The notes under the pieces: model-generated
Database searches by the model: none
Told to the model about the DNA's origin: nothing
Seen by the model: the letters and a program-made list of their open reading frames with translations, nothing else
Part shown: piece by piece, positions 40,006 through 44,236 of the stretch
Numbering within the stretch: the first letter of the stretch is position 1
Layout: each line of letters starts with the position of its first letter
Position numbers and translations under genes: made by a program
Virus record (IMG/VR): IMGVR_UViG_3300042698_000041
Coordinates: 1-54,653 of that record
Strand: one strand, 5' to 3'
Length of the DNA: 54,653 bases
Source of the DNA: a virus

Positions 40006-40077
40006 GCCCCCGTAGCTTAATGGAAGAGGCACCGGCATCTAGGCCGGATGATGCAGGTTCGAATCCTGTCGGGGACA
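40006..40077 (+). tRNA. tRNA-like gene with 6-nt anticodon loop AUCUAG (CUA exposed)
   Basis: Acceptor gcccccg/cggggac (C2-A71 mismatch). D-arm gctt/aggc. Anticodon arm ccggc-atCTAg-gccgg is 16 nt rather than 17. T-arm gcagg-TTCGAAT-cctgt. Confidence 0.5.
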
Positions 40078-40308
40078 CAGGCTTTACAGGGGAGCCACGG
40101 TTCTTGAGGGTGTCCGTGGCAGGAGAACCGGTTGTCACTCCTGGTCCCCGATGAGTGACAAGGGGCTACCCCAGCTATGGCTTGGGGATTGCGGCCACGG
40201 CAACCATGGTGCCCCGAAGGTTGCGGCCGGTGACCGTATGGTTTTGGACTTCCCCACGGTCACCGGCATTAAGGCTTCCCCATCGCGGGGATGAGAGAGG
40301 AAACAAGG

Positions 40309-41403
40309 ATGAGTCAAAACTACATAAACCATGTTGCCATCCTCTTGGACGCCTCCAGCTCCATGGGGGGCCGCGAATCCGACGTCATCAAGGCCGTCGA
40401 CAACCAGATCAAGTACCTGGCCCGACGCTCCAAGGAGATGGACCAGGAAACCCGCGTCTCGGTTTATTCGTTCGCCGATCACCACAACATCAAGTGCATG
40501 ATCTTCGACAAGGACGTGTTGCGCCTGCCGTCAATTGCCAGCCTCTACAAGGTTTATGGCAACACGGCACTGATCGACGCCACCCTATGGGCGATCTCAG
40601 ACCTTAAGTCCACTTTCACCAGATATGGAGACCACTCGTTCTTGATCTTCGTATTCACCGATGGGCAGGAGAACAACTCGACTCATCGCTCAGGGGATTT
40701 GTCGCGAGAGATCGGAAACCTGCCGGAGAATTGGACCGTGGCCGCATTGGTCCCGAACATCAATGGCAAGCTCGACGCTCAGCATCATGGATTCGATAAG
40801 GGCAACATCGCTGTCTGGGACGTTTCCAGCATTACCGGCGTCGAAGAGGCAATGACTGAGCTTCAGGTGGCCACCGACTCGTACATGAGCATGCGCTCCT
40901 CGGGGATATCGGGAACCCGCAACCTGTTCTCCACTGATGCCAAGGCCGTCAACGCCGCTACGATCAAGGCTGCTGGCCTTAAGCCCCTGGATCCCAAGTC
41001 CTACACCCTGACCGCTGTCACCGCGCCCAAGGTGGCCAAGAACCCCGATGGAACACGCAACGACGAAAAGAGTCAAGGCTCCCTGAACAAGGACAAGCAC
41101 CCTGTCTGGGAGATCCAGGACTACGTGGAAAAGCTCAACGGCCCAGGAAGCTTCAGGGTCGGCAAGGCATTCTACGAGCTGTCCAAGAAGGAGAAGATTT
41201 CCGGGGCCAAGCAGTTGGCAGTCTTCGAGGTGGCCACAAGCAGGGTGTTTACCGGACCTGGGGTCCGCGCCCTGATCGGTTTGCCTGACGCGGACGCAAC
41301 CGTGGCACCTGACTTCAATCCCAGCTACAAGATCTTCGTCCAGTCACAGTCACACAATCGCCACCTGGTGGTGGGGACCAAGATCCTAGTTTTGAACAAC
41401 TAA
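40309..41403 (+). CDS. von Willebrand factor A (vWA) domain protein
   Basis: Start at Met7 of ORF 40291..41403, after GAGAGGAAACAAGG. MIDAS pattern ILLDASSSMGG ... GNTAL ... FTDGQEN. Confidence 0.75.
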   Translation: MSQNYINHVAILLDASSSMGGRESDVIKAVDNQIKYLARRSKEMDQETRVSVYSFADHHNIKCMIFDKDVLRLPSIASLYKVYGNTALIDATLWAISDLKSTFTRYGDHSFLIFVFTDGQENNSTHRSGDLSREIGNLPENWTVAALVPNINGKLDAQHHGFDKGNIAVWDVSSITGVEEAMTELQVATDSYMSMRSSGISGTRNLFSTDAKAVNAATIKAAGLKPLDPKSYTLTAVTAPKVAKNPDGTRNDEKSQGSLNKDKHPVWEIQDYVEKLNGPGSFRVGKAFYELSKKEKISGAKQLAVFEVATSRVFTGPGVRALIGLPDADATVAPDFNPSYKIFVQSQSHNRHLVVGTKILVLNN

Positions 41404-41411
41404 GTTGACTT

Positions 41412-41546
41412 GGGTAGGCTGGTGCATGGTTGCCCGAAAGGCCCACCTGTAGCGGAGAAACAGTCAGAGCAAACCGGGATGCGTACGGCCCGAGAGGCAC
41501 TGGCATGTCAATGTAGCAGTGGAGGTTCGATTCCTCCTATACCCGC
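41412..41546 (+). ncRNA. 135-nt element ending in a tRNA-type T-arm and acceptor-like pairing
   Basis: ggagg-TTCGATT-cctcc followed by tataccc, which pairs with gggtagg at 41412 (6 of 7). Far too long for a tRNA. Confidence 0.3.
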
Positions 41547-41711
41547 ATGTTTGCCTTGATACTGGGCGTGATCCTTGTTTTGTGTGGTATCGGGTGCGTG
41601 AACGCCCACAAGTTTGTGGCCGGTATATTGTTCAGTCTGCTGGGGACCGGATTCTGCGTATACGCATTGAACAATGCGTTTCACACCATGTCTTCGTGGC
41701 TCAGCTGGTAG
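41547..41711 (+). CDS. small membrane protein (3' end overlaps tRNA-Lys)
   Basis: Hand-translated 54-aa ORF MFALILGVILVLCGIGC... The stop lies 22 nt inside the tRNA. Confidence 0.35.
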   Translation: MFALILGVILVLCGIGCVNAHKFVAGILFSLLGTGFCVYALNNAFHTMSSWLSW

Positions 41712-41762
41712 AGCATCTGACTTTTAATCAGAGGGTCGCAGGTTCGAGTCCTGCCGGAGACA
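41690..41762 (+). tRNA. tRNA-Lys (anticodon TTT)
   Basis: Acceptor gtcttcg/cggagac. Anticodon arm tctga-ctTTTaa-tcaga. T-arm gcagg-TTCGAGT-cctgc. Confidence 0.85.
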
Positions 41763-41782
41763 CGTAGGAGGGAGGTGATTAA

Positions 41783-41965
41783 ATGCTGTATCTTTGGCTG
41801 GCCCTGGGGCTTGGAGTACTGGGCATCGTGTCTATCAGCGTGGGATACAAGTTGTTCGGATACATCATGTGCCTTGCCGCCATCGTCAGTTTGATCACGT
41901 GGTTCAGGAACCCGGGTATCTCGGCTCCCGAGATCCCGGACAACATTCCGGTCCCGGGACGGTGA
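41783..41965 (+). CDS. small membrane protein
   Basis: ATG after GGAGGGAGGTG. 60 aa with two TM helices. Confidence 0.5.
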   Translation: MLYLWLALGLGVLGIVSISVGYKLFGYIMCLAAIVSLITWFRNPGISAPEIPDNIPVPGR

Positions 41966-42036
41966 GAGCCTTCATCACCAGCGTCCTGTGTTTCCTGGGG
42001 TTGCTGGCCTTGGTTTACATCTTCTGGGATCTTTAG
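41962..42036 (+). CDS. small membrane peptide
   Basis: GTGA overlap with the previous stop. 24 aa, VRAFITSVLCFLGLLALVYIFWDL. Confidence 0.3.
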   Translation: MRAFITSVLCFLGLLALVYIFWDL

Positions 42037-42048
42037 AAAAGAGGCAAA

Positions 42049-42132
42049 GTGTTCAAGTGGAAGGGTAGTTGGATCATCGTAGGTGTCGCGGGCCTCGTCT
42101 TGCTCGTGTGGGCCATGGGTGGATTCAAGTAA
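42049..42132 (+). CDS. small membrane peptide
   Basis: GTG after AAAGAGG. 27 aa, VFKWKGSWIIVGVAGLVLLVWAMGGFK. Confidence 0.35.
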   Translation: MFKWKGSWIIVGVAGLVLLVWAMGGFK

Positions 42133-42950: not shown

Positions 42951-42963
42951 CTAAGGAGGTGCC

Positions 42964-43344
42964 GTGTCCCGCACGGACAAGACGCGACCATACTGGGTGC
43001 AGCTTCGCGACCCCCTGTTCCCTTGGCCTATCAGGGAACACCATTATCACCACGGCTGCTTCGCAACCACACCTGAATGCGACATTGACTTCCCAGTGCC
43101 AGGGCCAAGACGCTATGGGCCACTAAGATCTTGTGAATATTGGCCTCGATACAAGGACAACGACAAGATCTATGGGAGGCCGAGGCACAGACGCAGCCTT
43201 AAATCCTTTCAGGACGGCAGGGCGCGTGCCGACCTTCGGCGCCTGCGAGCCGAATGGCTCAAAGAGCCCGACCGCGAGCAGATTGACTCCACCGAGAACG
43301 CACCGACAAGCCGTTGGCGTTGGCGCCGATGGTACTGGGATTAA
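42964..43344 (+). CDS. hypothetical protein (TDKTRP family, paralog of 43698..43931)
   Basis: GTG after TAAGGAGGTG. The N-terminus MSRTDKTRPYWV is shared with 43698..43931. Confidence 0.55.
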   Translation: MSRTDKTRPYWVQLRDPLFPWPIREHHYHHGCFATTPECDIDFPVPGPRRYGPLRSCEYWPRYKDNDKIYGRPRHRRSLKSFQDGRARADLRRLRAEWLKEPDREQIDSTENAPTSRWRWRRWYWD

Positions 43345-43360
43345 CCGAAGGGAGGTGGCC

Positions 43361-43447
43361 ATGGAGGTTCTATTATGGATCGGCGTCATCGGGCTTATCG
43401 CCGGTTGCTGCATCTACGTGATCAAGAAAGCTAAGAGGCGCCCGTGA
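43361..43447 (+). CDS. small membrane peptide
   Basis: ATG after GGGAGGTGG. 28 aa, MEVLLWIGVIGLIAGCCIYVIKKAKRRP. Confidence 0.4.
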   Translation: MEVLLWIGVIGLIAGCCIYVIKKAKRRP

Positions 43448-43450
43448 ACC

Positions 43451-43819
43451 ATGGAGGAAATCAATAACTTCATATTGCAATTGCTGGCCACCATCACTTG
43501 TGGCCGAGAGAAATCTTGCCTTGCCAAGAGGAAATATCTTGACGAGGAAAAAGCTCACGAAAGGGCGCAGGCTCTGTCCCAGCGGCCCAACCAGCGTCAT
43601 AAGGTGGAGCCGTACGGATGTCCGTGGTGTTTCGGATGGCATGTGGGCAGACCCCTGAGCCGCCCAAGGACCCTGTACTTGTCGATGGGGGTAAGGGGTG
43701 TCAAAGACGGACAAGACCAGGCCTTGGAGGGTGAATCAGACCGATCCCCTCAACCAGAAGTTCCGCCGAGTGGTTGCCTGGGAGCTGGAATGGTTCTACA
43801 AGCGGATGGGTCAGGTTAA
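43451..43819 (+). CDS. hypothetical protein (3' extent doubtful)
   Basis: YGCPWCFGWHVGRP motif. The last 122 nt overlap 43698..43931. Confidence 0.4.
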   Translation: MEEINNFILQLLATITCGREKSCLAKRKYLDEEKAHERAQALSQRPNQRHKVEPYGCPWCFGWHVGRPLSRPRTLYLSMGVRGVKDGQDQALEGESDRSPQPEVPPSGCLGAGMVLQADGSG

Positions 43820-43931
43820 GGGCTGCTGGTGTTGCAGCCAGAAACATCATTATGCCCAGGAGCAGAAGAGCACCAGGGTTAAATGGAACAGGCAGCGCCG
43901 TGATCTGGAGAAAGGAGGATGGCGCGAATGA
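43698..43931 (+). CDS. hypothetical protein (TDKTRP family)
   Basis: GTG start. N-terminus MSKTDKTRPWRV. Confidence 0.5.
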   Translation: MSKTDKTRPWRVNQTDPLNQKFRRVVAWELEWFYKRMGQVKGCWCCSQKHHYAQEQKSTRVKWNRQRRDLEKGGWRE

Positions 43932-44038
43932 AGATCATAGTATGGACACTGGTGATGATGAGCCGCGTCATCCTCGTCGGCTTGATCTTCTGGGGGTTCA
44001 TGCTGTACACCCGAAATGAATGGGCTATGTGGTATTAG
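43928..44038 (+). CDS. small membrane peptide
   Basis: ATGA overlap. 36 aa, MKIIVWTLVMMSRVILVGLIFWGFMLY... Confidence 0.4.
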   Translation: MKIIVWTLVMMSRVILVGLIFWGFMLYTRNEWAMWY

Positions 44039-44047
44039 GGAGAAAGC

Positions 44048-44146
44048 ATGGAATGGAAACACTGGAAGATCTATTTCATCTCGGTGGGGATCATCGCCGC
44101 TCTAGGGATATTGATCATTTGCTCCCGGATGTTCGGCTCCCACTGA
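44048..44146 (+). CDS. small membrane peptide
   Basis: 32 aa, MEWKHWKIYFISVGIIAALGILIICSRMFGSH. Confidence 0.4.
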   Translation: MEWKHWKIYFISVGIIAALGILIICSRMFGSH

Positions 44147-44152
44147 CGAAAT

Positions 44153-44236
44153 ACCCCCGTAGCTCAGCGGGATGAGCGCGCCACCCCAACCGTCAAGGTC
44201 ACGGCGAGGACACAGGTTCGAATCCTGTCGGGGGTA
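44153..44236 (+). tRNA. tRNA-like gene with enlarged, non-canonical anticodon arm
   Basis: Perfect acceptor acccccg/cgggggt, D-arm gctc-agcgggat-gagc and T-arm acagg-TTCGAAT-cctgt. The central arm cgcc...ggcg is 28 nt with no standard 7-nt loop. Confidence 0.45.

Follow-up and report, generated by a model that had tools for sequence, protein, structure and literature searches.

Three related tRNA-shaped genes, which we call e1, e2 and e3, are located in the virus contig IMGVR_UViG_3300042698_000041 of the IMG/VR database, which was analysed over its whole length of 54,653 nucleotides (the window). None of the three is predicted to be able to decode, and one of them, e3, appears to belong to a family of tRNA mimics that is conserved, does not decode and has not been described before. 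A first-pass annotation, made from the letters of the sequence alone, had pointed out the three genes and had considered suppressor tRNAs, nuclease-resistant tRNAs, decoys, pseudogenes and processing signals as possible explanations. Our tentative interpretation is that e1, e2 and e3 are tRNA mimics that have been retained for their body and act as processing and structural modules.

The Rfam tRNA model (RF00005, gathering score 29) finds all three genes with E-values from 2e-7 to 4e-5 (bit scores are given in Table 1), the alignments deviate from the model in the anticodon loop only, and the minimum-free-energy fold is a cloverleaf for each gene. These results confirm the positions and arms given in the first-pass annotation. 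The proposed relatedness was borne out as well, with 34–35 of 41 fixed body positions being identical in pairwise comparisons; the other tRNAs of the window share 18–28 of these positions with e1–e3, except for tRNA-Lys(UUU), which shares 30–34. The nucleotides required for tertiary contacts are intact in all three genes (U8, A14, G18G19, the 15:48 pair and the T loop UUCGAAU or UUCGAUU), and in e1 the G7-C66 pair and the A15:U48 tertiary pair are compensated changes. The D and T arms of e3 are canonical. That the acceptor arms are shared, as had been noted before, holds true, but the stems differ in quality: seven of seven positions are paired in e3, six in e1 and five in e2. A C2·A71 mismatch is present in both e1 and e2, and e2 has in addition either a G1·G72 mismatch or a bulged A71.

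The anticodon arm of e1 consists of a 5-bp stem (CCGGC/GCCGG) closed by the 6-nt loop AUCUAG, which does not contain U33. In e2, a 5-bp stem (UCCCU/AGGGA) carries the 4-nt loop ACAC. The arm of e3 is extended: a CGCC/GGCG stem surrounds 20 nt that form a 6/3 internal loop (ACCCCA/CAC), a 3-bp helix (ACC/GGU) and a 5-nt loop (GUCAA). Thus, e1–e3 have the cloverleaf and the conserved tertiary nucleotides of a canonical elongator tRNA and lack its 7-nt loop, in which position 33 is U and position 37 a purine. It is because of the 6-nt loop, the 4-nt loop and the 20-nt extension that we consider the three genes unable to decode. ARAGORN, which had been named as a check, reports e1 as tRNA-???(ct) and e2 as tRNA-???(ca), each with a two-base anticodon, and misses e3. 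Abnormal loops make up 12 of 78 distinct ARAGORN calls (15%) in this phage family, as compared to 2% in more distant phages carrying the vWA-domain gene that lies next to e1 and 1% in unrelated phage contigs.

Orthologues of e3 were found in 12 distinct genomes, namely the window and eleven related loci, which are labelled with L-numbers (L196, L197, L028, L030, L188, L112, L032, L251, L192, L029 and L031). They occupy the same position; the L192 member was recognised by its D-arm pattern, and synteny was not part of its assignment. A canonical 7-nt loop is present in none of the 12. The region between the D and T arms comprises 33–46 nt in nine of them, is reduced to an 8-nt loop in L032 and L029, and has shrunk to 0 nt in L031, so that the acceptor-T minihelix is the one part of this orthologue that folds. 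Outside these three loci the extension of the anticodon arm measures 19 to more than 30 nt.

In an alignment of 11 of these sequences 94% of the cells are paired, and 12 of 24 pairs have changed on both sides. The covariation score is 0.367 in comparison to 0.135 after shuffling, a value of 0.367 is reached by none of 500 shuffles, and slid controls show at most 46% pairing; the alignments contain 11–12 sequences, some of which are closely related. Covarying pairs are located in the acceptor stem (four), the T stem (three) and the anticodon stem (four); in the extension, the pair that opens the inner helix covaries as well. Since pairing has been kept by compensatory changes, the e3 body is under selection. 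The discriminator, on the other hand, is A, U or C among the orthologues, whereas it is always A in the canonical Lys tRNAs of the same phages. This variability argues against a role in aminoacylation identity. The 19-mer of the e3 D arm matched 50 times in 185,579 prokaryotic genomes, with 48 chance matches in coding DNA and two in actinobacterial tRNA-Val(CAC), and thus revealed no cellular e3. A search of IMG/VR with the pattern GAGGACRCAGGTTCRA returned 117 stretches and no new e3 members.

The e3 gene does not stand alone, a finding that goes beyond the first-pass annotation. It is directly joined to a structured RNA for which Rfam gives no match and which starts 1–2 nt past the e3 discriminator across the e3 orthologues. 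A helix, P1 (44238–44245 with 44326–44333), encloses a variable domain and is followed by a long hairpin, P2 (44339–44351 with 44390–44402), which has a conserved loop motif, CCCGACGGC, and precedes a U-rich tail. In P2, 16 pairs show compensatory changes (RNAalifold, alignments A8 and A9). The strands of P1, which was identified from single-sequence folds and manual comparison, covary as GGAGAUG/CGUCUCC, GAAGGCG/CGCCUUC and GAAAGACG/CGUCUUUC. The structured module has been kept in L031 despite the loss of the anticodon arm, and P2 has been kept in L029. On the other side of e3, the stop codon of an open reading frame (ORF) for a small hydrophobic protein lies no more than about 10 nt upstream in 11 of the 12 genomes. 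A tRNA-like fold that abuts another RNA or ORF in a conserved register, as would be typical of a processing handle, is therefore what we find in e3. P2 together with the U-rich tail resembles a terminator as judged from the sequence. The structured RNA as a whole may be the leader or attenuator of the next gene or a small RNA.

The canonical tRNA most similar to e1–e3 is a tRNA-Arg(UCU) of L250 (35, 36 and 38 of 41 positions), followed by the tRNA-Lys(UUU) of L028 with 33–36 of 41 positions. A scan of IMG/VR with the shared acceptor and T-arm pattern retrieved 25 unrelated phage tRNAs, all but one of them canonical and most of them Arg. Because of these matches the body of e1–e3 is of the Lys/Arg(UCU) type. 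The positional orthologues of e1 and e2 in sister phages are canonical tRNAs. A canonical tRNA-Lys(CUU) is located just upstream of the vWA gene in L028, L029, L030, L196, L197, L188 and L251, and the upstream flank of e1 is homologous to the flank of this tRNA in L028. In L250, the closest relative, the position of e2 is taken by a canonical tRNA-Arg(UCU), which lies 758 nt past the vWA stop codon (759 nt in the case of e2), and the hairpin GGGCGCTGCCACGCCC is found upstream of both. From L028 the e2 element is entirely missing. The aberrant forms of e1 and e2 are known from one lineage, represented by two near-identical assemblies, the window and L027; the latter comes from a different sample (Logan assembly DRR519670).

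The anticodon stems of e1 and e2 differ from those of their orthologues. Because they are wholly new and yet perfectly paired, e1 and e2 do not seem to be simple indel mutants, and both still look selected for their fold. The 5' sequence GCCCCCGUAGCU and the A71 that they have in common suggest gene conversion among the paralogues. They may be recently disabled tRNAs. The Lys(CUU) decoding lost by e1 may be supplied by the 100-nt tRNA at 42368–42467, in which a hairpin of about 30 nt is inserted into the D loop; its anticodon loop is CCCUUAA, which presents CUU and has C33, its CCA end is encoded, and ARAGORN misses it. The same architecture is present in L198 (13210–13308), L059 (4907–5006) and L028 (8888–8984).

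According to the interpretation that we tentatively prefer, e1–e3 would be co-transcribed from the plus strand with neighbouring tRNAs and small ORFs, and their transcripts would fold into the L-shape. Enzymes of tRNA processing (RNase P, RNase Z or 3' trimming activities, and the CCA-adding enzyme) would recognise them, the borders of e1–e3 would be fixed cut points in the polycistronic transcript, and cleavage would yield a stable, nuclease-resistant tRNA-like RNA that is barred from translation. The e3 gene would represent an anciently fixed case, with its tRNA-like fold placed at the 5' end of a non-coding unit that is conserved, terminal and about 260 nt long; this unit would begin no more than about 10 nt past the stop codon of the membrane-protein ORF, continue with the P1 domain and end at the terminator-like P2. 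In contrast, e1 and e2 would be lineage-specific conversions of a tRNA-Lys(CUU) and a tRNA-Arg(UCU), respectively, in which only the role of the body has been retained. We infer the transcription, the processing and the downstream effect of the elements, while their fold, relatedness, orthology, covariation and anticodon-arm plasticity were observed directly. RNase P, RNase Z and the CCA-adding enzyme require no more of their substrate than an acceptor-T minihelix, and the retention of this minihelix in L031 therefore fits a processing role. A precedent for such processing comes from actinobacteria, since the YrlA RNA of M. smegmatis is cut by RNase P and gains CCA in vivo (PMC4201824).

Several observations weigh against processing as the whole function. 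In most orthologues the extension of e3 keeps a recognisable internal loop (5' ACCCYA / 3' CAC) as well as an inner helix that covaries, which a pure processing role leaves unexplained. Nor does such a role account for the conservation of the D arm and of the anticodon stem, as RNase P and RNase Z need the acceptor-T minihelix only. Furthermore, the canonical tRNAs of the cluster could punctuate the transcripts equally well, and the interpretation offers no positive reason for the loss of the anticodon. Finally, the empty e2 site in L028 indicates that at least this site is dispensable.

It is also possible, although doubtful, that e1–e3 are decoys against a host defence that targets tRNAs, in which case a Lys/Arg(UCU) body without a cleavable loop would titrate or block a nuclease or a toxin modifying the acceptor end. 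Bodies of this type belong to the class most often attacked by anticodon nucleases, and tRNA-Lys is a favourite target: tRNA-Lys(UUU) is attacked by PrrC, by PARIS AriB and by a bacterial Schlafen (PMC10264068; PMC13056530). Phage tRNAs are established counter-measures (PMC11464382, PMC11555353). The body of the elements has been conserved while the loops were destroyed in many independent ways, and the same phage carries a variant Lys(CUU) tRNA with C33 and a PNKP-type 3'-phosphatase (E=5e-44). However, the loops of e1–e3 are unlike those of the presumed targets, so that enzymes reading the anticodon loop would not be engaged, and the L031 orthologue is without any anticodon arm. A stoichiometric RNA acting against a catalytic enzyme would moreover demand very high expression or tight binding, and Pfam detects no RNA ligase among the 39 distinct window ORFs of at least 77 amino acids that were scanned. 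A more specific version, which we regard as rather unlikely, makes the e3 family, and perhaps e1 and e2, a dedicated anti-defence RNA, that is, an anticodon-less decoy against enzymes that attack or sense Lys/Arg-type tRNAs via the body or the acceptor; the extension of the anticodon arm would then act, along with the P1 domain fused to e3, as a platform for effectors or binding. Of the processing signals and decoys suggested in the first-pass annotation, the common element, non-decoding tRNA mimics, is thus supported. Pseudogenes had been suggested too. For e3, decay is ruled out by the level of pairing, the 12 two-sided changes and the outcome of the 500 shuffles. That e1 and e2 are recently inactivated relics of tRNA-Lys(CUU) and tRNA-Arg(UCU) without a selected function, their shape persisting through recency, is conceivable and in our view unlikely. 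The canonical positional orthologues, the acceptor defects of both genes, the restriction of the aberrant forms to this lineage and the absence of e2 from L028 would all agree with it, as would a transfer of Lys(CUU) decoding to the tRNA at 42368–42467. The anticodon stems, on the other hand, have not decayed but are new, perfectly complementary and GC-rich, each ending in a short loop. Neither the D and T arms nor the tertiary nucleotides have been damaged, and e1 shows compensation at 15:48 and 7:66. Both genes still reach 40–47 bits with the tRNA model, and dead DNA is rarely kept in compact phage genomes.

The phage encodes a Ro60 protein, the gene of which is located 3.7–7.9 kb upstream of e1–e3 in the same orientation, with six Y-RNA-like units in between. 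It is improbable that e1–e3 are extra partners or effector-binding modules of this Ro60/Y-RNA system, comparable to the tRNA-like domain of YrlA. In favour of such a role, among genomes that extend over the Ro60 position, a set without the short contigs and L192, e3 members occur only in those encoding this Ro60 (TROVE 63–72% identical), and "anticodon" loops of 5–8 nt are likewise seen in the Y-RNA modules of these phages. But e1–e3 have the ordinary topology with open acceptor ends and do not contain the Ro60-binding stem GGUGCG...UACUUC / CCUUGAnCUC, and the YrlA model of Rfam does not match them at E<=1; we therefore rejected them as members of the Y RNAs. Even less probable are decoding tRNAs, whether as suppressors of amber codons or frameshifts or as decoders that resist nucleases. 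The loop of e1 does contain CUA, which had led to the suggestion of an amber suppressor, and tRNAs with an Asn body and CUA in a 7-nt loop are present in relatives (L029 13344–13420, L196 11934–12007, L198 13134–13208). In e1, however, CUA sits in a 6-nt loop without U33 and not at positions 34–36 of a 7-nt loop, and the suggestion is not tenable. The nuclease-resistant decoders proposed in the same place likewise fail, as none of e1–e3 has a usable anticodon loop: neither the 6-nt and 4-nt loops nor the 20-nt extension provide U33 or 7-nt geometry. The discriminator of e3 also speaks against decoding by its lack of conservation. The view that TAG is an ordinary stop codon here proved correct, with 13 of 70 long ORFs ending in TAG and no recoding signal in the window: ORF coverage rises from 0.835 with the standard code to 0.870 when TAG is read as sense, a smaller gain than that of the TGA control, which reaches 0.910. 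The least credible explanations are an assembly or sequencing error, an intron-bearing tRNA or a phage attachment site (attP) with a tRNA fragment. Loop-length changes of one base are typical of sequencing errors, and the first-pass annotation had taken canonical loops in homologues as a sign of such an error. Homologues of this kind do exist for e1 and e2 and are absent for e3. Yet e1 is identical in the near-identical contig from the independent Logan run, and the e3 orthologues come from more than 10 samples and are all non-canonical. An error is unlikely for e1 and e2 despite their canonical homologues, because e1 repeats in the second assembly and both stems are new and perfectly paired. 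Introns were rejected since the inserts of the e3 family measure between 8 and about 30 nt, far less than a group I intron with its more than about 200 nt, and since their removal does not restore a consistent 7-nt loop or U33, as that of a bulge-helix-bulge intron behind position 37 would. Attachment sites with tRNA-derived cores are common in temperate actinophages, but e1–e3 are full-length tRNA shapes and not 3' fragments, and Pfam finds no integrase among the 39 ORFs.

The properties of e1–e3 fall within tRNA mimicry by non-coding RNAs, of which several cases are known. The mascRNA at the 3' end of MALAT1 and the tRNA-miRNA transcripts (TMER) of murine gammaherpesvirus 68 contain a non-aminoacylated tRNA-like fold that is joined to another structured RNA, and their ends are set by RNase P or RNase Z. 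This arrangement matches the one of e3, P1 and P2; these handles are eukaryotic or viral, however, with other enzymes and polymerases, and in e3 the tRNA-like part is at the 5' end of the unit and cleavage is only proposed. Bacterial pseudo-tRNAs such as tRNA-Other of Bacillus cereus are encoded on the chromosome, are related to tRNA-Lys, stand outside bulk translation and are regarded as regulatory. They resemble e1–e3 in being tRNA-shaped, tRNA-Lys-related and non-translating, but the pseudo-tRNAs have a 7-nt anticodon loop and can be charged, whereas e1–e3 have no such loop and the discriminator of e3 is not conserved. With ordinary tRNA pseudogenes e1 and e2 share that they are lineage-specific derivatives of decoding tRNAs with acceptor mismatches. 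What sets the elements apart from pseudogenes is the compensatory conservation of e3 in 12 genomes and, in e1 and e2, new perfect stems instead of random decay.

Similar to e1–e3, the YrlA Y RNAs (RF02553; PMC4201824) are non-decoding, and their D arm, T arm and acceptor stem are truly tRNA-like; they are encoded beside Ro60 in actinobacteria and the phages of these bacteria. YrlA is circularly permuted, though, its acceptor is closed by a loop and its "anticodon stem" opens into the Ro60-binding helix, whereas the topology of e1–e3 is normal. Phage tRNAs that evade nucleases (van den Berg et al. 2023, PMC10264068) are also phage-encoded, often Lys and equipped with an anticodon arm unlike that of the host; the changes that the paper describes in their anticodon loops are all substitutions, and insertions or deletions are not mentioned. 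The tRNA-Lys of T5 in its relation to PARIS is comparable as a phage tRNA in a setting of tRNA-targeting defence (PMC11464382). Nuclease-evading tRNAs have a 7-nt loop and a functional anticodon and replace depleted host tRNAs. Neither feature is present in e1–e3, which cannot replenish decoding. In the literature searched, we found no account of anticodon-less tRNA-like genes of normal topology that are conserved in phages.

Phage tRNA genes are now mostly taken to supplement codon usage or to replace tRNAs that host defence systems have destroyed, whereas e1–e3 apparently cannot decode at all. Because e3 has been kept by compensatory evolution in at least 12 genomes and is joined to a structured RNA, the tRNA body itself seems to be a selected module in phages, beside the Y-RNA tRNA mimics of the same genomes. 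If the elements serve in processing or stabilisation, they would be the bacterial-virus counterpart of tRNA-like processing handles. If they are decoys, they would represent a new RNA-based counter-defence and a new class of tRNA mimicry in the conflict between phage and host, apart from replacement tRNAs and Y RNAs. For annotation the lesson is that ARAGORN labels such genes "???" or misses them, and that at least one "tRNA-Phe" call in the window belongs to a Y-RNA-like unit.

Table 1. Positions of the tRNA-shaped elements and of associated RNA and protein features in the window.
Feature	Position	Strand	Description and evidence
e1	40006..40077	+	tRNA-shaped gene; Lys/Arg(UCU)-type body; Rfam 47.2 bits
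e2	42162..42233	+	tRNA-shaped gene; Lys/Arg(UCU)-type body; Rfam 40.4 bits over 42164–42230
e3	44153..44236	+	84-nt tRNA-like gene; Rfam 48.5 bits with 20-nt insert
Structured RNA	44237..44415	+	directly joined to e3; P1, variable inner domain, P2, U-rich tail; no Rfam match
tRNA-Lys(UUU)	41690..41762	+	Rfam 73.8 bits; ARAGORN Lys(ttt); nearest canonical paralogue of e1–e3 in the window
100-nt tRNA	42368..42467	+	own scan; model R1 43.7 bits; Rfam partial 28.2 bits
Ro60/Rsr-type TROVE protein	34669..36261	+	Pfam TROVE E=6e-19; PHROG 850 "RNA-binding protein" E=1e-46
Six Y-RNA-like units	36845..37770	+	motif count, YrlA match, sequence reading

The Ro60 gene, which together with its Y-RNA array had not been part of the first-pass annotation, is found at the same position in all close relatives. 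Y RNAs of the YrlA type that mimic tRNAs adjoin Ro60 in actinobacteria and mycobacteriophages (PMC4201824). Each of the Y-RNA-like units of the window consists of a 5' strand with GGUGCG, a hairpin and UACUUC, a tRNA-like module and a 3' strand with CCUUGAnCUC. The motif GGTGC-N8-22-TACTTC occurs six times (0.23 expected), only at 36845–37665. The unit at 37161–37271 gives a full-length match to YrlA in Rfam with 31.9 bits (E=9e-5), which is below the gathering score of 69. A tandem array of six such units beside a phage Ro60 seems unusual. One unit contains the "tRNA-Phe(GAA)" that ARAGORN and Rfam report at 37531–37604; it has two acceptor mismatches, and its orthologues have loops of 5–8 nt (L029 8238, L031 7567, L033 8484, L188 1987, L199 8473 and L250 1744). 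This gene is probably the tRNA-like module of a Y RNA and not a decoder.

The window is the complete JGI metagenome contig Ga0502594_05598842 of 54.6 kb and represents the genome of a tailed, actinophage-like, uncultured soil phage with a GC content of about 58%. Pfam identifies a portal, a large terminase and a primase-helicase of the D5 type among its proteins, and the portal is only about 28% identical to portals of Microbacterium, Arthrobacter and Streptomyces phages. A megablast search of INPHARED gave matches of the size of tRNA-Lys only and revealed no related cultured phage at the DNA level. Searching IMG/VR with the vWA protein alone yielded no relatives, whereas an alignment-based search succeeded, and 14 close relatives with a common gene order were retrieved. 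This order comprises terminase, GntR, Ro60, a non-coding block of 3–4 kb, vWA, small ORFs with tRNAs, and the PNKP phosphatase. The direct neighbours of e1–e3 are small membrane-protein ORFs, canonical tRNAs and the vWA-domain gene (40309–41403). The T-loop motif GTTCRANTC is present 22 times in the window (3.1 expected), with 17 of the 22 located within 37.1–46.6 kb; the tRNA-like T loops are therefore not due to chance. A scan for sigma-70 promoters and terminators was uninformative, as the counts were no higher than in shuffled sequences.

Homologues of the vWA protein number more than 2,700. Many of them lie on contigs of 52–56 kb, and in phage contigs they are usually located inside tRNA clusters. 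The protein has a beta-rich C-terminal domain, and its AlphaFold model has a pLDDT of 90. Foldseek matched the model to vWA/integrin I domains and, weakly over both domains, to Ku70/80 (TM 0.34); these predicted structural similarities appear to have no bearing on the e1–e3 RNAs. The PNKP-type phosphatase is a stand-alone HAD 3'-phosphatase (45941–46381) without a kinase domain and has been kept in most relatives. It hints at healing of RNA ends and hence at tRNA damage during infection. By Pfam and PHROGs it was the only such enzyme, with no RNA ligase, kinase or integrase among the neighbouring ORFs scanned.

Further unusual RNA elements were observed in this region and its relatives. The Asn-body CUA tRNAs of L029, L196 and L198 have C33, are called "Pyl" by ARAGORN and replace the normal tRNA-Asn in L196 and L198. 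They are possible amber suppressors; a crude ORF test gave no signal of TAG recoding. A highly structured leader (40080–40300) lies between e1 and the vWA start codon and contains the hairpin GUUGCGGCCGGUGACC...GGUCACCGGC, a counterpart of which is kept in L029, L030 and L031. Just past the vWA gene, an element of about 135 nt (41412–41547) has been kept in L028, L250 and L198 and has no match in Rfam. Its 5' end, GGGUAGG, is paired with UAUACCC on the 3' side, behind a perfect T arm, which gives ends of the type of a tmRNA tRNA-like domain around a 95-nt core. In the tRNA-like gene at 39327–39401, called "Phe(AAA)", the stretch from the D to the T arm measures 26 nt instead of the usual 22–23 and Rfam reports an irregular insert of 17 nt; an orthologue is present in L198 (9829–9904). 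In distant vWA phages a conserved insertion of about 100–135 nt (GGCCCGAAAACGGA...), too short for a group I intron, replaces the anticodon loop of tRNA-like genes in L038 (minus strand, 12314–12467), L099 (minus strand, 15851–16002) and L048 (16127–16310). Apart from RNAs, the large terminase is enlarged to 764–782 amino acids in L030 (97–2445) and L031 (1213–3507) and matches intein-splicing domains there, whereas the 501-amino-acid terminase of the window has no such matches.

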